A stretch of 64,000 nt of DNA from an uncultured Clostridia bacterium (GCA_934162655.1 CAKPJL010000003.1:1714-65713), one strand, 5' to 3'. Shown: positions 540 to 15,141, counted from the stretch's first letter. The notes: generated by a model from the sequence alone, not told the origin. Made by a program: numbers and translations.

Positions 540-1154
540 TTATATTTTTTCATCTTCAAAAGAGTAAAAATTATAATCCATAATTGTATGATACACAACT
601 TTATATTCATTTTTAGATACCCTTTTTATTAAAATTATTTCTTTACTTGAGTCAACACCTTTTTGTTTTTTTACTTTGCCTGTATATCTTTTTTCTTCAT
701 TATCATATATAGGGTTTTCTCTGTTATCTTTATCCACTGTAACTTTTATATTTAACCACATTAAAATGTATTCCCCATTTATTTGATAGCTATCAACACC
801 TATTATTTCTTTTATATATTCATACATCATATACTTTCCATTTATTTGATTATCTAGTCTTTTTCTATATTCTTGCAATATAAAATCTTTTCTTTGCTTA
901 TAAAGATAATTTGAAAGTTCATTATTCATTTTATTTATGTAGTTATTATACTTTACTAAATCAATTTTTTTATCAAGCACTCTATCTTCTTTTTCAAGAA
1001 CAGAATATTTATTATATACTTCAAAATACTCTTTTACAAATTCTAGTCCTTTTACTTTATCCTCTTCTTTTTGCTTTTCTACATATATTAGGTTTATTAC
1101 TATCCCAATTAAAAATAAAACTATAAGCACTATGCCTATATTAATTTTTTTCAT
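540..1154 (-). CDS. Hypothetical membrane-anchored protein (tandem paralog)
   Basis: ORF 540..1163. The GTG at 1163 lies inside the GGGTGGA Shine-Dalgarno, so the ATG at 1154 (MKKINIGIVLIVLFLIG...) is the likely start. One N-terminal TM helix; no recognisable domain. Confidence 0.6.
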   Translation of the reverse strand: MKKINIGIVLIVLFLIGIVINLIYVEKQKEEDKVKGLEFVKEYFEVYNKYSVLEKEDRVLDKKIDLVKYNNYINKMNNELSNYLYKQRKDFILQEYRKRLDNQINGKYMMYEYIKEIIGVDSYQINGEYILMWLNIKVTVDKDNRENPIYDNEEKRYTGKVKKQKGVDSSKEIILIKRVSKNEYKVVYHTIMDYNFYSFEDEKI

Positions 1155-1282
1155 ATATTCCACCCTACGCTATAAAAATATTATCACAACAAATATTAAT
1201 ATTCAACATTTAAATTTAAACTTTACTAATATATTTTAATATTAGACATATTTCTACAAAACTAGTTATTTTTAGACATAAA

Positions 1283-1314
1283 AAGTGATATAACAGTAAC
1301 TTGCTATATCACTT
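1283..1314 (-). terminator. Rho-independent terminator after the DUF402 gene
   Basis: 10-bp stem AAGTGATATA/TATATCACTT with a 12-nt loop, followed on the minus strand by TTTTTAT. It overlaps the TGA stop at 1309..1311. Confidence 0.6.
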
Positions 1315-1863
1315 CTCTAAATTATTTTTTAGTATTTTAAAATATTTAAAACAAAACTGGTTTAATCTATATTCATTTTGCCTAATACTATTTAGTATTT
1401 TTTTTGCCTCATTACTTGCTAGCTCAAACTGCTTTTTTGTTATCTTTTTGGAGTTTAATGCATCGTTTAGCTCATCTTCATCTAACAAAAAAACTCTACC
1501 ATTTTTTAATAAAACTATATCTAAAAATAAATCATAAAAGAAAGCCTCTTTTTTACTTGCAATAACATTTTTATAAGTTATATCAATATAATATTGTATC
1601 AAACTTCCTTTACTATCATACATAGATGTAATCCAATAGTTAACATCTTTTAGTCCTATTTGCAACCAATAATAGCCATCATCTACTACTTTAATATCTT
1701 TACCATTTTCATATTTTTTTGATAGTGGTTTTGTTACTTTTATTATATGAATTAATTTAGCAACCCCAATAACTTCATTATTTTTTATGATATCACATGA
1801 CATATCACATCTTTTTAAAATACGTTTCCAATCATATTTATTAATATCTTTTTTCTCTAACAT
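1309..1863 (-). CDS. DUF402 family protein (FomD/Ntdp-like nucleoside di/triphosphatase fold)
   Basis: 184 aa with the typical DUF402 core: DDGYYWLQIG...YIDITYKN...FFYDLFLDIVLLKNGRVFLLDEDELNDAL. The start lies 10 nt downstream of the IleRS-like stop. Confidence 0.6.
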   Translation of the reverse strand: MLEKKDINKYDWKRILKRCDMSCDIIKNNEVIGVAKLIHIIKVTKPLSKKYENGKDIKVVDDGYYWLQIGLKDVNYWITSMYDSKGSLIQYYIDITYKNVIASKKEAFFYDLFLDIVLLKNGRVFLLDEDELNDALNSKKITKKQFELASNEAKKILNSIRQNEYRLNQFCFKYFKILKNNLEK

Positions 1864-1872
1864 AGACTTTAC

Positions 1873-4728
1873 CTAATTTTCATGTTCTAGAATTTTAACA
1901 CAATTTTGACATATATGAACATATCGTACATCTCTTCCGACATCAGGAGTAATATTTCTGCACCTTGCACATTTTTGTCCAACAGCTTTTTTAATTATTA
2001 TTCCTCTTTTTGAATTATCATCTACAACATTTATTTCAACTTTTGAGACATTTAATGTCTTTTCTAAATTATCTATATTCTCTTCTAAAAACGCTTTTTT
2101 ATCTTCCAAGACATTTAACACAAGTAAAACTTCAAGTGAGTTTTTGATCTCTTTTTTAGAAATTGCCTTATTTATTAGTTTATTTGTACTCCTTGCAAAT
2201 TTAAATATTTTTGACCACTTTTTTTTGTAATCATCCTTTTCAAGCTTAGATAGTGTTATACTTTCTCTATGCATAAGTATATTTTTTTCTTCTTCTTTTG
2301 AACTATGCCATGCATATTGCCATGCTTCTTCTAGTGTAAATGGTATTATTGGCTCTAAATACATTACAAGTTGCATAAATATATCAAATAGGGTAGACAG
2401 TGTCATCAAATGTATTTTATCTTTCTTATCAAGTACATAAAGCCTATATTTAATTGAATTAAAATAATCTATACACAAATCTTCTCTTACAAAGCTGCAA
2501 AGTGTTTTACATGCAACATCAAAATTACACTTTTCATATTCTTCTCTAACATAACTTGACATATCGTAAAGTTTTATATACATATATTTATCTAAGTCTG
2601 TTCTCTTTTCAATTTCTATATAGTCTACACTCGGATTGAAATCTTGTAAATTCGAAAGCAAAAATTTAATTGCTCTCCTCAAATTTTTATATATTTTATT
2701 TGACTTTATAATAGATTGTTCATTAAGTATGATGTTTTTATTTCTAGCAGACAATACTCCCCAAAGTCTTAATATATCTGTACCATATTTTTTTGACACA
2801 TCTGATATACCAATTTCTGTTTTTATTGCATTTGCAATGTCTTCTTTACTATTCTTATCAAAAAATATTGGCTTTGCTATTATTTTCGTATCCTCTAAAA
2901 CATCCGAATGTAAAATATACTTTTCAATATTATTTAACTCTTCTATTCCGTTTTCATCATACATTAAAATTTTTAGCCTATCAACAAAGTCATTTCTACT
3001 TTGTATTAAAACATGAACTTTTTGTTTTGGAGTATCTATTTCTTGAAGAATTTCAATACATAACTTCCTAAAAAATATATTAAACACAATATCGCACTTA
3101 GACATCATATCTTTTCCACACTTTGCACATATATTTTTTGACTTCAAAATATCTTGTGTATCTGCAACATTTACATAAGTGATGCCCTTGTTTTTAATAA
3201 ATTCTTTTGTCAAAGCTACGGTATCATCATTTATATAATATGAATTGCACCCTAGACACTTATATATAGGTATTGGAGTACCAAGCATAGAATAATCAGA
3301 TATTATAATATCTTGACTCGTATCTAGCTTTAAAATCTTTCTTTTTACATATTCTTTAAAATTTTTCTTAGTAAATGTAGATTTTTCTAAAAGTTCTATT
3401 GCTTTTTTCTTTATTTCTTCTGCCTCTTTTGCATTACTTTTTATATAAAATGCCGGTTTACTAATATATATTGTATCTACATTACATTTTTCACATACAG
3501 GTATTGAAAGAGCAATATAATCTTCTAAGAAAATAAATTCACCTTTTCTTAGATATGATATAATAAATTCATTTACATCATTAATATTCTTTCCTACTAC
3601 CCTTACATTTCCCCTTAAAATCACTCCACCTTCATTTACCACTGCACCTTTTAGTTCTTTTTTTTGTCTTTTATATATTAAGTAATCTAAATATGAATAT
3701 TCAGGTACAATAATTCTTATTCCCGTGGAATTTTTCTTATCTGGGCTAACATATATCTCATCTTCTGATATAATCTTTATACTTTGAGTATAATCCATAG
3801 GGTTAGTTAATACAAATTGCTCTAACTCTTTTGAAGATATTTCATCCTTTATTATATATTTAGTAAAAAAAGCATTTTGCATAACTTGTGCAACATTTTC
3901 TTTTTTTATGATGTAATGATGCGTACTAGATATTTGTTCAACTTCAACAATCAAATATGTCGTGTTTTTCTCTATTACAAGCTCATCACTTACTGATACC
4001 ATCCATGGATTTATTGTTGTTGCAATTACATAGGTATTTCTTAGATTATTATATTTTGACAAAACTCCCCTGTCATCTTTTACTCTATACATAGTGTATA
4101 AATTTATATGTTTTTTCTTAATATATTTTACTCCTGTTTTATCATAATACTTGCCACAATTAGAACAGTAATGCATAGGTTTCTCATCAAAGTATATTTT
4201 ACCATTGCTATACATTTTATAGAATTTATCTATAACCTTATTTGAAAATTCATTGCTTATAGTGCTGTAATTGTCTTTTGAATAATCTACAACAGTACCG
4301 AGAGTCCTTATTTTATAAATTTTATCAGAAACTGTATCAAATAGCTTTTTTTGAAATGCAATTCTATTTTTTACATCACCATTTCTTGAAATTTCTTCTT
4401 CGTCTTGCAAAGTGTTTTCATAAATAAAACCTATTTTATGAGATGTAGAATTTCCTTGCATACATTCATATCTGATAAGTACATCCTTAAATATTTCATT
4501 TACAATATCCTTTGGACTAATTCTTTGTTTAATATCAAGTGGAATTTGTGAAATATTATATAAATATCTAGAATTAGCATTTTTTTGTTGTGCATCTTTA
4601 TACTTTTTAGGATCCTGCAAACTCTCTAAAAAATATCCCTGCTTTTTTACAAGTTTAGCATCACTTGGTATAGTTTTTTTAGGTAAATTTAATGTATCAT
4701 CAAAATTTTCTTGTCTATTTATTTTCAC
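1873..4728 (-). CDS. Isoleucyl-tRNA synthetase-like protein with degenerate catalytic motifs (probable pseudo-synthetase)
   Basis: 951 aa, GTG start behind GAGAGGTGA. IleRS landmarks present: DTLNLPKK, TTINPWM (cf. TTTPWT), KYGTDILRLW...YKNLRRAIKFLLSNL, and a C-terminal CARC...CQNC zinc knuckle. The HIGH, GWDTHG, SRQR and KMSKS positions are all substituted (see finding). Confidence 0.7.
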   Translation of the reverse strand: MKINRQENFDDTLNLPKKTIPSDAKLVKKQGYFLESLQDPKKYKDAQQKNANSRYLYNISQIPLDIKQRISPKDIVNEIFKDVLIRYECMQGNSTSHKIGFIYENTLQDEEEISRNGDVKNRIAFQKKLFDTVSDKIYKIRTLGTVVDYSKDNYSTISNEFSNKVIDKFYKMYSNGKIYFDEKPMHYCSNCGKYYDKTGVKYIKKKHINLYTMYRVKDDRGVLSKYNNLRNTYVIATTINPWMVSVSDELVIEKNTTYLIVEVEQISSTHHYIIKKENVAQVMQNAFFTKYIIKDEISSKELEQFVLTNPMDYTQSIKIISEDEIYVSPDKKNSTGIRIIVPEYSYLDYLIYKRQKKELKGAVVNEGGVILRGNVRVVGKNINDVNEFIISYLRKGEFIFLEDYIALSIPVCEKCNVDTIYISKPAFYIKSNAKEAEEIKKKAIELLEKSTFTKKNFKEYVKRKILKLDTSQDIIISDYSMLGTPIPIYKCLGCNSYYINDDTVALTKEFIKNKGITYVNVADTQDILKSKNICAKCGKDMMSKCDIVFNIFFRKLCIEILQEIDTPKQKVHVLIQSRNDFVDRLKILMYDENGIEELNNIEKYILHSDVLEDTKIIAKPIFFDKNSKEDIANAIKTEIGISDVSKKYGTDILRLWGVLSARNKNIILNEQSIIKSNKIYKNLRRAIKFLLSNLQDFNPSVDYIEIEKRTDLDKYMYIKLYDMSSYVREEYEKCNFDVACKTLCSFVREDLCIDYFNSIKYRLYVLDKKDKIHLMTLSTLFDIFMQLVMYLEPIIPFTLEEAWQYAWHSSKEEEKNILMHRESITLSKLEKDDYKKKWSKIFKFARSTNKLINKAISKKEIKNSLEVLLVLNVLEDKKAFLEENIDNLEKTLNVSKVEINVVDDNSKRGIIIKKAVGQKCARCRNITPDVGRDVRYVHICQNCVKILEHEN

Positions 4729-4820
4729 AAATACTCACCTCTCTTTTGTATAAATCTCTTATATTACTATAATGTTATCACATAAATATTATAAATTCAA
4801 TGTAACTTACATAATTAAAC

Positions 4821-4869
4821 ATAAAAAATATGAAACTCTAATAGATATATTATCTATTTTGTTTCATAT
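4821..4869 (-). terminator. recR terminator
   Basis: ATATGAAAC / GTTTCATAT 9-bp stem enclosing a second small hairpin (AATAGATA..TATCTATT). TTTTTAT follows on the minus strand. Confidence 0.6.
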
Positions 4870-4885
4870 TTTTTATTTATAATTT

Positions 4886-5479
4886 TTACATTTTTATTCT
4901 GCCTTCCATGGCTTTTATCAATGTTATTTCATCAGTATATTCAAGGTCTCCTCCAACAGGAATACCATGTGCAATTCTTGTAACATTAATTCCAAGTGGT
5001 TTTATAAGTCTTGAAATATACATAGCAGTTGCTTCTCCTTCAATAGTTGGATTAGTAGCAAGTATTACTTCTTTTATAGTATCATCTTTTAATCTCTCTA
5101 AGAGTTCTTTTATTTTTATATCTCCTGCTGTTATATTATTCATAGGTGATATAGCTCCATGAAGTACATGATACATTCCCCTAAACTCATGCGTTCTTTC
5201 CATAGCAATTACATCTTTTACATTTTCTACTACACAAAGAGTAGATTTATCACGCATATTATCTTGACAAATTTCACATGGGTCCTGCTCTGTTAAGTTA
5301 TAACATATAGAGCAAAACTTTACTTTATTTTTTGCCTCGACAATTGCTTCTGCCATTTCCTCTGCTACTTTTTTATCTGACTCTAATACAAAAAATGCAA
5401 GTCTAATAGCTGTTTTATGTCCTATTCCTGGTAATCTTTCAAATTGATTTATAAGTTTTTGTACTGAACTTGAATACAT
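4886..5479 (-). CDS. recR: Recombination protein RecR
   Basis: 197 aa. N-terminal helix-hairpin-helix [18 protein letters not shown]4 zinc finger [16 protein letters not shown], Toprim-like C-terminal part. Conserved dnaX-ybaB-recR synteny. Confidence 0.95.
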
Positions 5480-5490
5480 ACATGTGTCCC

Positions 5491-5835
5491 CTACATTAAT
5501 CCAGGAATATTATATTGTCCTAGCTCTTGTGTCATAAGTTCATCTGCTTTGTTTAGTGCTTCATTTACAGCTGTTAAAACTAAGTCTTGTAACATCTCTA
5601 CATCATCTTTGTCAACAACTTCTTTTTTTATTATTATTTCTTTTATTACCTTTCCACCTGTTGCCTTTACCACTACTGCTCCACCGCCTGCTGATGTCTC
5701 AATTTCTTTTGCTTGAACTGCTTCTTGCTTTTCAGTCATTTCTTTTTGCATCTTTTGTGCTTGACGCATTAGATTTTGCATATTTCCAAAACCTCCGCCG
5801 CCTGGAAATCCACCAAATTTACCCATATTACTCAT
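5491..5835 (-). CDS. ybaB: YbaB/EbfC family nucleoid-associated protein
   Basis: 114 aa with a Gly-rich N-terminus, then [16 protein letters not shown] and ...VLTAVNEAL. Lies between dnaX and recR as in most bacteria. Confidence 0.9.
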
Positions 5836-5878: not shown

Positions 5879-7414
5879 TCAATCTATTAATTTATAATCT
5901 ATTCCACTTTCTCTTAAAACTTTTTCTATTATCGTATCTTCTGTTTGATCCTCTTCTTTTAGTTCTATTTTTATAATGTACTCTTTTTGACCCATGCTAT
6001 TTACTACATTTGTTAGACACATCACATTTTCGCTATTTACTAAAATTTCATAAGCAAATTTATTTGAAACAATAAATAAAAGTATGTTATCCTTCTGATA
6101 TGCTTTTACACTAGATAGTGCAGAATATAGCTTAAGTTTTCCTCTCTTTGCACATTCTTTTTTTAATTCTTCAAGCATTTCAAAACTTTCACAAATCTTA
6201 GATGTATCTATATTTTTAACACTAGTATCTATTTTAGCACTAGATGAAGCATTAATTGCACCTATCTTTAACTTCGATAATTTTTCTACTTCCCCCTCAA
6301 GTTTATTTATTTTGCTTTCAAGTTTTATTATAGATGAGTTATCATTTACTGCTTGTTCTACGCTTTTACCCACACTTGAAGTATTACATACTTCTACTAT
6401 ACATGCTTTCATAAGAATTGAGGTAGAAACAGCAAACCTTAGATCATTATCTAGTTTTGATAGCCTATCTATTATATATATTATTCTACTATCTTCTAAA
6501 CCTTGATATTTGTTCCTCTCACCACTTCTATTAATAAGTATATTTAAAAATTCTTGTGTTAATTGCGAGTTCAACTGTCTTAAATCTTTTCCTTTATTTA
6601 TTATTTGATCAAGAATCTCAATAGATTCATTTATTTTACTTTCTATAATTGCAGATGCTAAATCACAAATTATTTTATTATCTATTCCTCCAACTATCTT
6701 TAACACTTTTTCATATGTAAGTTTTTCATCATCTTCGGTTTGACATCTATCAAGTATACTTAGAGCATCACGCAATGCACCATCTGCTAAGTATGCAATA
6801 TACTCTACTGCCTCTTTTTCATAAGATTTATTTTCTTGCTCTAGTACATACATAAGTCTTTTTGAAATATCTTCTTTTGAAAGTCTAGAAAATTCAAATT
6901 TTAGACATCTAGATAATATTGTTATTGGTATTTTATGTTGTTCTGTTGTTGCAAGTATAAATATAACATTTTCAGGCGGTTCTTCAAGAGTTTTAAGCAA
7001 AGCATTAAATGCACTAGTTGTAAGCATATGTGCCTCATCTATAATATAAACCCTATATTTGGTATCAACCGTTGAATAAACTACTTCTTGTCTTATTTGT
7101 CTAATATTTTCTACACTATTGTTTGAAGCAGCATCCATTTCTACAACATCTGTTGTAGAATTATCAAGAATTTTTTTACACACTTCACACTCATTACAAG
7201 GCTCACCATCAATAGGATTTAGACAATTTACAGCTCTTGCAAATATTTTTGCAGCACTTGTTTTTCCAGTTCCTCTGCACCCACTAAAAATATATGCATG
7301 TGAAACTTTTCCAAGACGTATTTGATTTTTGAGTATTTTCGTAACACCTTCTTGTCCTACAATATCTTCAAATTTTAACGGTCTATATTTTCTATATAAA
7401 GCCACATAAGCCAC
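5879..7414 (-). CDS. dnaX: DNA polymerase III subunit gamma/tau
   Basis: Clamp-loader motifs YRKYRP, GCRGTGKTSAAKIFARAVNC (Walker A), zinc module CNECEVC, IIDEAHMLT, SRC. The likely start is the GTG at ~7414 behind AAAGGGGGGA. The ORF-track extension to 7453 overlaps the SRP RNA 3' half. Confidence 0.9.
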   Translation of the reverse strand: MAYVALYRKYRPLKFEDIVGQEGVTKILKNQIRLGKVSHAYIFSGCRGTGKTSAAKIFARAVNCLNPIDGEPCNECEVCKKILDNSTTDVVEMDAASNNSVENIRQIRQEVVYSTVDTKYRVYIIDEAHMLTTSAFNALLKTLEEPPENVIFILATTEQHKIPITILSRCLKFEFSRLSKEDISKRLMYVLEQENKSYEKEAVEYIAYLADGALRDALSILDRCQTEDDEKLTYEKVLKIVGGIDNKIICDLASAIIESKINESIEILDQIINKGKDLRQLNSQLTQEFLNILINRSGERNKYQGLEDSRIIYIIDRLSKLDNDLRFAVSTSILMKACIVEVCNTSSVGKSVEQAVNDNSSIIKLESKINKLEGEVEKLSKLKIGAINASSSAKIDTSVKNIDTSKICESFEMLEELKKECAKRGKLKLYSALSSVKAYQKDNILLFIVSNKFAYEILVNSENVMCLTNVVNSMGQKEYIIKIELKEEDQTEDTIIEKVLRESGIDYKLID

Positions 7415-7437
7415 TCTAATCCCCCCTTTAATACAAA

Positions 7438-7522
7438 AAGTCACCAAACACATAAAGTTTAGTGCTTATTGCTGCTTCCTTCCGGACCTGACAAGGTTCA
7501 CACTTCTTTATCGTTTGGTGGT
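7438..7522 (-). ncRNA. ffs: Signal recognition particle RNA, small (4.5S-like) type
   Basis: The minus strand reads ...CACCAAACGAUAAAGAAGUGUGAACCUUGUCAGGUCCGGAAGGAAGCAGCAAUAAGCACUAAACUUUAUGUGUUUGGUGAC. It contains the universal domain IV motif GUCAGGUCCGGAAGGAAGCAGC. The closing helix is CACCAAAC/GUUUGGUG, with inner pairings AUAAAG/CUUUAU and AGUG/CACU. A U-run follows. Position immediately upstream of dnaX is classical. Confidence 0.8.
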
Positions 7523-7528
7523 AAGCAT

Positions 7529-9973: not shown

Positions 9974-11869
9974 CTATTCTTCACTACCATTTCCAAATAA
10001 TTCATCGAATTTCTTTTCAAGTTCTTTTTGCAAATCAAAATCTATATTCCTATTCTCTCCACCACTAGAATTAGAACTGCTTACATCATCGCTATATTTT
10101 TTTACTCTTTGCTCTCTTTTTTCCAAATGGCCCAAAACATCCATCGTATGTATTGGTGTGCCCTGTCTTTTGGGCATCTCATATATATTATGGATTTCAT
10201 ATTTTTTTACAACATCTTTTAGTGGGTGATATTTAAAGTAAAATGCTTTATCAGCAAGTATTGGTTTGCATCCCCTTACAAGTAGTATTTCTTTATTTGG
10301 ATTTAGCCTTTTAATCTCATCAACTGTCATAAGGTCTCTTCCCTGGCGTTGTTCACTAAACGAAACTCCCTGTTTTGTCATCTCATCTTTATCTTTGCTT
10401 ACGGATCTATTTTGAACCTTAATAGTTTTTTGTCCTAAACTTTTATTAATATACTCACAAGTTTTTATTGCCTGGCTTCCCAAAAATATTTGAGTATCAC
10501 AGTTACCAATAATGTTTTCATATGTATCTTTATATAATCCTTCCAACTGGTCCAAACTTTGTACAACTATTGACATACTCATACCTAAACTACGAGTTGT
10601 GCTTAATTTTTTATTGAAGTCAGGAATTTGTCCTATATTTGCAAATTCATCTAGTAAAAAGTATACTTGGTTTTTTAGCATTCCTCCATTTTTATTTGCT
10701 TGTGAATATAAAACTTGTAACATCTGACTAAAAAATATTGTTAAAATATAATCATATGTACTATGGTCAGCTGGTGTAATAACATATAGAGCTGTCTTTT
10801 TATTTCCAAGTTCTTCAAAATCTATACTATTAGTTGTAGTTAATTTTTGCATATTTGGAGTATCAAAATGTGTTAATTTTGATACAAGTGATATTGCAAT
10901 AGATTGTTTTGTTTTATCTGCACCTACCCTAATACCCTCATATTCTTTTCTACCTGGATGTTCAGGTTTTAGTTCATCAACAAAGAGCTTATCAAATATA
11001 GATTCATCTGCTCCACCTTGCCTTACTATATTTAAACAACTTGATAAATTTTGTTCCTCTTCTGGAAGTACAGATATAACATAATATATACAAGCTTTAA
11101 GTAACATTTTAGCCGTATTATCCCAGAAAGGGTCTGCAGAACCACCTTTATTTTCCCCACTGTTCACAATAGTATGTGCTATTATATCAACATCTGCATG
11201 ATCCCTTATATGTGCTAGTGGATTGTATCTATCACTAAATTCAGGATCATCAACTAAGTCTAACACTTTTACATTATATCCATTTGCCTCTAAAAATTTA
11301 GAAGTTTCACGGTAAAGTTCACCTTTTGGATCAGTTATTACATAAGACCCCAACATTTGCATAATATTTGGTTTTATGTAACATGCGGATTTACCTGTAC
11401 CAGATCCACCAATAACCAAAATATTCTTATTTATTTTTACTTTTCTTAAATCAGTTCCAAGATAGTGCTTTTTACTAAGTATAAAACCACCATGTTTATT
11501 TAAATTCTCACTACCATCTGAATTTTTTCTAAATTCCTCACCATTTTTACTCCATTCACTTGAACCACTTTCTTTCCCGTCATACTCTGAATTTTTACTA
11601 TTTGTAAATCTCCAATAAAAGAAAGCTATATACATAACTACCATTGTTCCAAGTGACCATTTTAAAAACATAGAAAAGTTAGCAAATACACAATTTGCAA
11701 CAATAGAAAATGGATGCGAGTATACATTTCCTAAATTTCCAATTTTATCAATTACTCCACCCTCACCTACTGTTAGTGTCGTAAAAAATGGTGCTATAAT
11801 TATAATATCAAATACTAAAAACAAAATAAACATTGCAAGCATTTGTCTTTTAAAATCTAAATCTCTCAT
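9974..11869 (-). CDS. Type IV coupling protein, VirD4/TraG family
   Basis: 631 aa. Two N-terminal TM helices, Walker A VIGGSGTGKSACYIKPN, ITDPKGELY, PFWDNTAK, Walker B YFLLDEFANIG, and a C-terminal acidic tail. Confidence 0.85.
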   Translation of the reverse strand: MRDLDFKRQMLAMFILFLVFDIIIIAPFFTTLTVGEGGVIDKIGNLGNVYSHPFSIVANCVFANFSMFLKWSLGTMVVMYIAFFYWRFTNSKNSEYDGKESGSSEWSKNGEEFRKNSDGSENLNKHGGFILSKKHYLGTDLRKVKINKNILVIGGSGTGKSACYIKPNIMQMLGSYVITDPKGELYRETSKFLEANGYNVKVLDLVDDPEFSDRYNPLAHIRDHADVDIIAHTIVNSGENKGGSADPFWDNTAKMLLKACIYYVISVLPEEEQNLSSCLNIVRQGGADESIFDKLFVDELKPEHPGRKEYEGIRVGADKTKQSIAISLVSKLTHFDTPNMQKLTTTNSIDFEELGNKKTALYVITPADHSTYDYILTIFFSQMLQVLYSQANKNGGMLKNQVYFLLDEFANIGQIPDFNKKLSTTRSLGMSMSIVVQSLDQLEGLYKDTYENIIGNCDTQIFLGSQAIKTCEYINKSLGQKTIKVQNRSVSKDKDEMTKQGVSFSEQRQGRDLMTVDEIKRLNPNKEILLVRGCKPILADKAFYFKYHPLKDVVKKYEIHNIYEMPKRQGTPIHTMDVLGHLEKREQRVKKYSDDVSSSNSSGGENRNIDFDLQKELEKKFDELFGNGSEE

Positions 11870-14758: not shown

Positions 14759-14764
14759 ATTTTA

Positions 14765-15098
14765 TAGTAAATTTGTAAGCCGGATTCTGTTTCAAATAGT
14801 CATTTATCTAGAATGTATATCACTATACATTTCAAGCCACCAACCACGGAAGATGACGGGCCGTCTTAGCCTTCCTATCTTGGTGTTGCACCAGGTGGGG
14901 TTTACACTGCAAATATGTCACCATAAATGCCTGTGAGCTCTTACCTCACATTTTCACCCTTACTATTAAAAATAGCGGTTATTTTCTGTTGCACTTTCCT
15001 TAAAGTTTCCTTCACTAGACGTTATCTAGCACCCTTGCCCTATGGTGTCCGGACTTTCCTCTTAAAATCAAAGTTTCAAGCGACTATATCATCTACTA
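14765..15098 (-). ncRNA. rnpB: RNase P RNA
   Basis: The minus strand carries GAGGAAAGUCCGGAC (P4 5' strand), AAGGGUGAAAAUGUGAGGUAAGAGCUCACAG and ACAGAAUCCGGCUUAC (P4 3' strand). Ends are set by the P1 pairing UAGUAGAU/AUUUACUA. Plus-strand ORFs 14712..14936 and 14927..15127 are shadows of this RNA. Confidence 0.93.
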
Positions 15099-15141
15099 AT
15101 ATTAATTATAGCACAAAATACAAATAAAATAAAGCATTTTA

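Follow-up and report, generated by a model that had tools for sequence, protein, structure and literature searches.

The window analysed here is a 64,000-nucleotide stretch of DNA from an uncultured Clostridia bacterium (GCA_934162655.1, CAKPJL010000003.1:1714-65713), and the gene in question, on its minus strand, has a GTG start and encodes a protein of 951 residues that resembles isoleucyl-tRNA synthetase (IleRS). This IleRS-like protein is very probably a pseudoenzyme, and with all class I catalytic motifs gone, its inactivity as a synthetase is near-certain. A preliminary description, made from the sequence alone, had proposed a pseudo-synthetase and not the housekeeping enzyme, and this proposal is well supported by the loss of the motifs throughout a whole family of proteins, by a ratio of nonsynonymous to synonymous substitution rates (dN/dS, or omega) of 0.07 and by the prediction of a complete type-1 IleRS (IleRS1) fold. 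As for what has been retained, we lean towards stoichiometric binding of a tRNA or a tRNA-like RNA, a function suggested by where conservation now sits in the protein.

Ancestry, architecture and predicted fold

The homology of the protein to IleRS is far beyond chance, and its architecture is that of a complete type-1 enzyme. The Pfam domains tRNA-synt_1, Anticodon_1 and zf-FPG_IleRS were all recognised, and the best sequence matches among solved structures were IleRS1 of P. megaterium (8c9f, E=8.6e-51) and of S. aureus (1ffy, E=3.1e-46). The NCBIfam model TIGR00392 was matched at E=3.6e-67, but the score of 227.3 bits lies below the curated equivalog cutoff of 621.4. When eleven canonical IleRS are aligned, 260 columns reach a conservation of 90% or more; only 68 of these are kept in the protein, among them the columns of all cysteines in the C-terminal zinc knuckle and in both internal zinc sites.

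The landmarks on which the preliminary description had based its claim of an IleRS scaffold are all present, namely DTLNLPKK (residues 10-18), TTINPWM (237-243), KYGTDILRLW (647-656) and YKNLRRAIKFLLSNL (680-694), as are the cysteine pairs CSNC (188-191), CEKC (412-415), CLGC (491-494), CAKC (534-537), CARC (920-923) and CQNC (940-943). An AlphaFold2 (AF2) model, computed from an alignment that contained canonical IleRS sequences, covers the full length with a predicted local distance difference test score (pLDDT) of 87.2 and a predicted template modelling score (pTM) of 0.81. Only the former KMSKS loop (residues 614-639) is disordered, with pLDDT <50 at residues 614-624 and 627-639. On searching with this model in Foldseek, template modelling (TM) scores of ~0.7 over ~955 columns were obtained to 8c9f and to the S. 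aureus tRNA complex 1qu2, so that the predicted fold is that of a complete IleRS1. The scaffold claim is thus borne out by the TIGR00392 match, the IleRS1 matches in PDB, the Pfam domains and the predicted fold.

Loss of catalytic and editing motifs

The correspondence of motifs was derived from HMMER and MAFFT alignments. In these, PLDIKQRISPKD stands opposite PPYANGxIHxGH (ISPKD opposite IHxGH), IGFIYENT opposite PGWDxHGLP, IIISDYSMLG opposite WCISRQRxWG, LIQSRNDF opposite YLEGxDQxRGWF, and NSKEDIANAIK opposite GxGKKMSKSLGN (KEDIANA opposite KKMSKS). Each string that had been quoted beforehand as the replacement of HIGH, GWDTHGLP, W.ISRQR.WG or KMSKS was found opposite the canonical motif, and no shifted copy of HIGH or KMSKS exists in the profile alignment.

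The loss is not peculiar to the protein in the window. Altogether 23 family members were examined, comprising 21 full-length proteins and two fragments without the N-terminal region. HIGH, GWDxHGLP, WCISRQR, EGxDQxRGWF and KMSKS are absent from all 21 full-length members, and the two fragments lack the three motifs that they cover. Set against what defines an IleRS in TIGR00392, the architecture and fold are there, while HIGH, KMSKS, the three motifs GWDxHGLP, WCISRQRxWG and EGxDQxRGWF, and a score above the cutoff are all missing. Since it fails every catalytic feature as well as the curated cutoff, the 951-residue protein should not be filed as an isoleucine-tRNA ligase.

The post-transfer editing site in the CP1 domain has been eroded to a lesser extent. 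Here STGIRIIVPEYS stands opposite GTGxVHxAPGHG, and no member retains T242, T243, N250 or H333 (E. coli numbering), the substitutes being mostly hydrophobic (Ile, Val or Thr at the H333 position). The universal editing Asp, equivalent to D342, is conserved in 17 of the 19 members that were aligned and is Glu in the other two; besides this residue, only T241, P244 and W245 of the site remain. The statement in the preliminary description that every catalytic signature is ablated therefore stands for the five catalytic motifs and fails for the editing site, where the equivalents of these four residues persist.

A conserved family under purifying selection

A word-indexed search of 5.8 billion proteins returned ten clusters at 34-92% identity, all of 951-978 residues and known from metagenome assemblies alone, after which the next matches were true IleRS at ~22% identity. 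When 1.84 billion representatives were searched exhaustively with a profile, the family grew to at least 14 clusters (50% identity), the matches being single, full-length and of 563-1516 bits, and a metagenome scan gave ~20 more member-carrying contigs of up to 286 kb, many of them labelled human gut. One cluster contains 150 member sequences, and contigs bearing the family extend to 348 kb. Full-length orthologues persist to ~31-34% identity, and a 60% identical orthologue was found on scaffold HF996743.1 of Clostridium sp. CAG:1219 in a scan of genome contigs. In a distance tree all 21 full-length members fall into one clade, which makes the family monophyletic.

The selection acting on the gene was estimated by the Nei-Gojobori method against the 92% identical relative (locus L009). 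The dN/dS is 0.07 over the whole gene (951 codons) and 0.02-0.15 in individual windows of 150 codons; the value for recR, 0.054, is indistinguishable from that of the IleRS-like gene. Together with the conserved full-length family, this argues that the gene is not a decaying pseudogene. The G+C content of all family-bearing loci is 21-31%, and the sporulation genes YqfD, YabP and SpoIID occur in their flanks, indicating that the hosts are spore-forming Firmicutes.

Some further observations were made on individual sequences. Contig QRFC01000014.1 (199,592 bp) carries a family member with 68% identity to P0064, and the accession of this contig may be that of a genome whole-genome shotgun record and not of a metagenome; if from a cultured isolate, this member would open the way to genetics. 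P0068 (1306 residues) and P0071 (1323 residues) carry C-terminal tails of ~330 residues after the zinc domain, which are disordered and rich in Lys, Glu and Asn. The two tails are unlike in sequence, yet end in the same terminal peptide, KLGMFEDSFRD, which looks like a tethered docking motif for a partner.

Amongst the top 150 profile matches, P0076, P0082, P0092/P0173, P0148, P0171, P0172, P0177, P0185 and P0189 have a degenerate HIGH and/or KMSKS but lie outside the family. In P0076 most of the active site is intact, but the protein reads TLGH, and KIVLD is found in place of KMSKS. Five of ten such degenerate IleRS-like proteins have Arg at the position of the wobble-stacking Trp (see below). 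These outsiders apparently arose in independent lineages, and the retirement of IleRS may be recurrent.

Where conservation now sits

Conservation was expressed as mean pairwise identity per segment and compared between the family and canonical IleRS. In the canonical enzymes the catalytic segments are the peaks (0.69-0.82 against 0.42 overall), whereas in the family they are of average conservation or less (0.16-0.37 against a mean of 0.35). They vary in length, carry low-complexity inserts (of variable length in the former KMSKS region of other members), and the replacements are not conserved from one member to another. The peaks of the family are instead the helix that follows the KMSKS position, YGTDILRLW (0.75), the helices of the anticodon-binding domain (ABD; 0.53-0.62) and the zinc-binding domain (ZBD; 0.51). 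For the same ABD and ZBD segments canonical IleRS show 0.38-0.69, which the family equals or exceeds, and the CP1 segments, at 0.42-0.43, are slightly over the family mean. The pattern of conservation is thus inverted, with constraint concentrated on the anticodon-recognition end. In bacterial IleRS the ZBD is described as essential for recognition of N34, and a C-terminally truncated IleRS keeps activation of Ile but loses transfer to tRNA (PMC11685878).

At this conserved end, the wobble-reading residues are altered. In canonical IleRS an Arg/Trp pair (R888 and W890 in S. aureus; W905 in E. coli is the equivalent of the latter) serves in reading G34 or lysidine-34 (PMC11685878, PMC3575796). 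The equivalent of R888, beside a zinc ligand, is invariant in the family, but the wobble-stacking Trp, present in 127 of 135 canonical sequences, occurs in none of the 23 members. Its place is taken by Lys in eight, Arg in seven, Leu, Gly and His in two each, and Gln and Asn in one each; the window protein has Arg924. Similarly, the Asn of the 'RNT' helix is found in 132 of 135 canonical sequences and is replaced by Arg or Lys in 22 of 23 members. The W905R and W905K substitutions let E. coli IleRS accept tRNAIle2 with a pyrimidine at position 34 (UAU, CAU) (PMC3575796). The position of E. coli R734 was also considered as a marker of anticodon recognition and was found to be uninformative, being variable even among canonical IleRS.

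Proposed function

We propose that a descendant of a bacterial type-1 IleRS lost Ile activation and tRNA charging, and that the dead scaffold was kept at full length across a lineage of low-GC, spore-forming gut Firmicutes under strong purifying selection. This selection would hold the scaffold together with its RNA-recognition end, that is, the three zinc sites, the helical ABD and the C-terminal ZBD. Since these are the parts preserved, binding of a tRNA or a tRNA-like RNA is the most likely function, and the candidate roles would be sequestration, chaperoning or hand-off of the RNA, with no catalysis. Both anticodon-contact positions are now basic, from which it follows that the RNA specificity has probably shifted away from tRNAIle with G34 or lysidine-34, possibly towards species with a pyrimidine at position 34. 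We infer that a separate, active ileS is present in the same genome, because the cell must charge tRNAIle; it is on this that the designation of the gene as a paralogue depends.

Several points weigh against such a role in RNA binding. Family members have lost the wobble-reading Trp and differ in what replaces it, so it is not obvious that one precise read-out of the anticodon has been conserved. Beside the gene there is no conserved partner, whether a tRNA gene, a tRNA-modification gene or another. The basic isoelectric point of the family (7.4-9.0 against 5.1-6.0 in the nearest canonical group), which would suit RNA binding, is confounded by AT-rich composition, some AT-rich canonical IleRS being basic as well, and the similarity of the predicted fold to IleRS is partly built in by the canonical sequences in the AF2 alignment.

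A more specific form of the proposal, which we regard as speculative and doubtful, is that the family serves, without catalysis, as a dedicated handler of the tRNAIle2 that decodes AUA (UAU, or the unmodified CAU precursor). Its grounds are the acceptance of pyrimidine-34 tRNAIle2 by W905R and W905K (PMC3575796) and the position of AUA as the majority Ile codon. In the 40 ORFs (open reading frames) of the window ATA accounts for 1003 of 1685 Ile codons (59.5%) and ~5.9% of all codons, and its share of Ile codons is 50-61% in the family-bearing loci (L001-L032). With such a majority, the largest share of Ile decoding must fall to the tRNA for AUA, nominally a minor one. A dead IleRS with Lys or Arg at the Trp position would recognise pyrimidine-34 tRNAIle2 and then chaperone or sequester it; for example, it could shield the CAU precursor from MetRS up to the formation of lysidine, or buffer the supply of AUA-decoding tRNA. 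The variability of the residue at the W890 position calls for caution here too. If true, a retired synthetase would have given rise to a new layer of fidelity in AUA/AUG decoding, one based on a protein.

Alternative explanations

The CP1 domain suggests an alternative, namely a trans-acting factor for proofreading or for binding of aminoacyl-tRNA, which would either hydrolyse mischarged tRNA or hold Ile-tRNAIle unhydrolysed. The Asp with which class Ia synthetases anchor the aminoacyl moiety in their editing sites, by its alpha-amino group, is retained in nearly all aligned members along with T241, P244 and W245, and the CP1 segments are conserved above the family mean. T242, T243, N250 and H333 are implicated in hydrolysis and specificity, and His333 helps to exclude cognate Ile; however, all four are replaced in every member and CP1 is less conserved than the anticodon-binding end, which leaves this explanation unlikely. 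About as unlikely, in our judgement, is a protein-binding scaffold or regulator with no role in RNA binding, such as a partner or modulator of the active IleRS. Regulation of an active enzyme by a catalytically dead paralogue is common, prozyme (PMC5201418) being an example, and the disordered tails of P0068 and P0071, with their docking-motif-like ends, would suit such a function. The best-conserved regions, however, are the RNA-recognition domains, and no neighbouring gene is conserved; IleRS, moreover, is monomeric. A new enzyme, either an SbzA-like aminoacyl-tRNA-dependent transferase or another catalyst in a remodelled pocket, is more improbable still. It has a precedent in SbzA (PMC6331615, PMC12945691, PMC9437257) and would agree with strong purifying selection along the whole protein, but SbzA keeps its aminoacylation site, weak charging and a biosynthetic cluster (PMC12945691), whereas in the family the former active-site segments are the least conserved parts, differing in both length and sequence, and neither a biosynthetic cluster nor a conserved neighbour is found.

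We give very little credence to the idea that the protein is the sole IleRS of the cell, still active through cryptic or shifted motifs. No second ileS was found within the 64-kb window or in any of the fetched flanks of relatives, where the 576-residue ORF in the flank of L001 is ThrRS and not IleRS. Against this, shifted HIGH or KMSKS motifs find no place in the profile or pairwise alignments, the motifs for binding the amino acid and the adenylate are gone as well with replacements that are not conserved in the family, and a large survey of 2026 reported near-absolute conservation of HIGH in type-1 IleRS (bioRxiv 10.64898/2026.02.03.703510). Least probable of all, to the point of being negligible, is a decaying pseudogene or annotation artefact without function. 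The disappearance of all catalytic motifs would be expected of one, but the frame of 951 codons is intact and preceded by a strong ribosome-binding site, omega is low, and orthologues remain full length at great divergence; the data on selection and conservation refute it. RNA binding by a non-catalytic scaffold is thus the reading that we favour.

Three further origins or roles were considered and rejected. There were no PADLOC matches that would mark a defence system; the two matches on viral contigs, which would bear on a phage origin, were only 21-23% identical and are not family members; and a decoy for mupirocin-type antibiotics was rejected since the pocket for such inhibitors is the adenylate site, which is ablated.

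Gene context and other features of the window

The coordinates of the gene, its domains and its surroundings are listed in Table 1.

Table 1. Features of the IleRS-like gene and its neighbourhood, in window coordinates
Feature	Position	Strand	Basis
IleRS-like pseudo-synthetase gene	1873..4728	-	ORF list, Pfam, TIGR00392, dN/dS, AF2, Foldseek
Shine-Dalgarno sequence GAGAGGTGA, strong, 6 nt 5' of the GTG start	4735..4743	-	Sequence reading
Former HIGH region, residues 60-76, SQIPLDIKQRISPKDIV	4501..4551	-	Opposite HDGPPYANGxIHxGHALN; identity 0.30 in family, 0.78 in canonical IleRS
Former GWDxHGLP amino-acid-binding motif, residues 99-107, IGFIYENTL	4408..4434	-	Identity 0.23 in family, 0.69 in canonical IleRS
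Two structural Zn sites from four internal CxxC pairs	3118..4167	-	Invariant in family, shared with canonical IleRS1
C188/C191 pair	4156-4167	-	Internal Zn site
C412/C415 pair	3484-3495	-	Internal Zn site
C491/C494 pair	3247-3258	-	Internal Zn site
C534/C537 pair	3118-3129	-	Internal Zn site
CP1 Thr-rich editing remnant, residues 237-247, TTINPWMVSVS	3988..4020	-	T241, P244, W245 kept; T242, T243, T246, N250 lost
CP1 GTGxVHxAPGHGxxD remnant, residues 334-348, STGIRIIVPEYSYLD	3685..3729	-	H333 equivalent is Ile; D342 equivalent kept as D348
Former WCISRQRxWG, residues 474-483, IIISDYSMLG	3280..3309	-	Alignment
Former KMSKS loop, residues 614-639	2812..2889	-	pLDDT <50; alignment; identity 0.16 in family, 0.70 in canonical IleRS
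Helical ABD, residues 646-810	2299..2793	-	PF08264, 76 bits; domain identities; R685 replaces 'RNT' Asn
C-terminal treble-clef ZBD (C920, C923, C940, C943)	1900..1980	-	PF06827; invariant cysteines
DUF402-domain gene, 184 residues	1309..1863	-	PF04167
Hairpin AGTGATATA...TATATCACT and TTTT after DUF402	1278..1313	-	Sequence reading
Approximate recombination breakpoint	1840..1880	.	Sliding identity, window against L009
AT-rich hairpin ATATGAAAC...GTTTCATAT and T-run 3' of recR, terminator-like	4821..4869	-	Sequence reading
recR	4886..5479	-	
ybaB	5491..5835	-	
dnaX	5879..7453	-	
SRP RNA	7436-7523	-	

The IleRS-like gene is followed by a gene for a DUF402-domain protein (PF04167, 43.5 bits against a cutoff of 23.9), and the preliminary description had regarded the two as an operon with a spacing of 10 nt. 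They are indeed closely adjacent, although the distance from stop to start is 9 nt, and the DUF402 gene is predicted to be co-transcribed with the IleRS-like gene in the window; the hairpin behind it is likely to be the end of the transcription unit. As a meaningful partnership, however, the pairing does not hold, since DUF402 follows the gene only in the window and in the 92% identical relative, and the linkage is missing in all other lineages examined. Other members are followed by a PBP5 gene on the opposite strand, rnc, a desulfoferrodoxin gene or genes for surface proteins. Synteny on the dnaX-ybaB-recR side extends to the ~60% identical clade (Clostridium sp. CAG:1219 and relatives), where downstream there is either a PBP5-type carboxypeptidase gene on the other strand or small ORFs of unknown function and then rnc. 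In the ~35% identical clade the gene lies after yqfD-ybeY-dgkA-cdd-DUF3298 or elsewhere. An all-against-all comparison of the flanks of 12 non-redundant loci gave no partner shared by all, the synteny being specific to lineages (dnaX-ybaB-recR in the 58-92% clade). The gene is surrounded by genes for housekeeping or sporulation (dnaX-ybaB-recR or yqfD-ybeY-dgkA-cdd), with no natural-product biosynthetic cluster, and no linked tRNA gene was found beside the IleRS-like gene.

The DUF402 segment has a history of its own. Between the window and L009, nucleotide identity is 84-93% (~89% ahead of the junction) in the stretch reaching from dnaX to the IleRS-like gene; from the start of DUF402 to the end of the window it is 96-100%, and dS is 0.075 for DUF402 against 0.57 for the IleRS-like gene. 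The jump in identity marks a recombination breakpoint and indicates that a recent recombination or transfer tract ends at the junction of the two genes. Given this step and the low dS, the DUF402 segment is a recently exchanged piece and not a co-evolving partner. An extra segment of ~670 bp with an ORF of 148 codons follows DUF402 in L009.

Upstream, the gap between recR and the IleRS-like gene is exactly 157 nt (4729-4885). It was confirmed to contain a hairpin with a T-run and, as had been claimed, no T-box: there was no Rfam match in it at the gathering threshold or even at E<=1. The hairpin was not called in a consensus terminator scan, having <3 G-C pairs. A canonical ileS taken as control (P0014, L015 9375-10000, from another low-GC organism) likewise has no detectable T-box upstream. 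The absence of a T-box is therefore real but not diagnostic, and was dropped as evidence. Ahead of the control ileS lie a gene for a MazE antitoxin and a MazF-like reading frame that had not been called. The nearest canonical matches come from unrelated organisms, with a GC content of 40% at the P0011 locus and of 29.6% at the P0014 locus, where ATA makes up 35% of Ile codons.

The G+C content is ~27% throughout the window, which is almost wholly minus-strand coding apart from a plus-strand cluster of tRNA-Lys(UUU), tRNA-Glu(UUC) and tRNA-Thr(UGU) genes at 26639-26877. The dnaX ORF as called overlaps the 3' end of the SRP RNA by 18 nt, and its true start is probably an internal codon near VAYVALYRKYRP. 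The RNase P RNA (class A) is found at 14760-15099 on the minus strand. Genes for TraG/VirD4-like coupling proteins of type IV secretion lie at 9974-11869 and 24621-26453; the placement of the former between VanW/G5 and dnaX recurs in a 60% identical relative (L016), which makes it a conserved chromosomal feature and not a recent insertion. A direct repeat of ~76% identity (147-511 and 793-1157) corresponds to tandem paralogous genes for small membrane-anchored proteins without a Pfam match, one copy being at 540..1163.

Significance

The family is common in Clostridia-like bacteria of the human gut, and automatic annotation will label its members isoleucine-tRNA ligase or generic class I ligase. 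Such mislabelling can inflate counts of marker genes and paralogues and mislead metabolic reconstructions. The family is additionally a natural experiment, in which a multi-domain scaffold of 950 residues and three zinc sites has been kept at the omega given above after the loss of its chemistry. The identity of the ligand would show what bacteria can reuse the body of a synthetase for, and in extremely AUA-rich genomes the family may bear on the separation of AUA from AUG.

Comparison with known systems

Synthetase-like proteins without catalysis are known, such as HisZ, SLIMP and LeuRS-I, but full-text literature searches found no published description of a full-length, catalytically dead IleRS family. 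With IleRS1 (S. aureus 1FFY/1QU2, P. megaterium 8C9E) the family shares the domain order, fold, zinc sites, ABD, junction domain and treble-clef zinc domain, as well as the motifs LNLP, NKxLKD, GxDxLRLW and FLLxNL. Unlike IleRS1, it is without the catalytic motifs, most editing residues, the wobble-stacking Trp and the Asn of the ABD, and the identity is ~20%. A basic residue at the wobble-contact position, as in the family, is found in IleRS of Mycoplasma mobile (Arg865) and in E. coli W905R/K, which recognise pyrimidine-34 tRNAIle2 (PMC3575796). Those proteins are active synthetases, however, whereas the family has a dead scaffold in which the substitution is not uniform.

The known relatives of IleRS are IleRS2, which is active and mupirocin-resistant, and SbzA (PMC9437257, PMC12945691). 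SbzA, from the SB-203208/altemicidin cluster, is homologous to IleRS over its full length and transfers Ile from Ile-tRNAIle to a small molecule (PMC6331615, PMC12945691, PMC9437257). Like the family it is not the housekeeping enzyme, and it exploits the tRNAIle-binding architecture (PMC6331615, PMC12945691). SbzA, however, has kept its aminoacylation site and weak charging and resides in a Streptomyces cluster, whereas in the family the site is ablated and unconserved, no cluster is present and the hosts are low-GC gut Firmicutes. Neither of the two features that would place the family with SbzA, a retained pocket and a biosynthetic cluster, was found.

In function, the closest parallels are found in other synthetase families, among duplicates that no longer charge tRNA but continue to bind it. 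SLIMP is a paralogue of SerRS that has lost aminoacylation, kept the binding of its cognate tRNA and acquired a new cellular role (PMC9437257). It is a class II, eukaryotic and mitochondrial protein that forms a heterodimer with SerRS and has LON as a partner, and it has no evolutionary relation to the family. LeuRS-I of Sulfolobaceae, a class Ia duplicate, binds tRNA, does not aminoacylate and matters for growth (PMC9437257). In LeuRS-I the active site is intact and Leu-AMP is formed, while CP1 is disrupted and the C-terminus is divergent (PMC9437257); in the family described here the situation is reversed, in that the active site is gone and the C-terminal end is the best conserved part of the protein.

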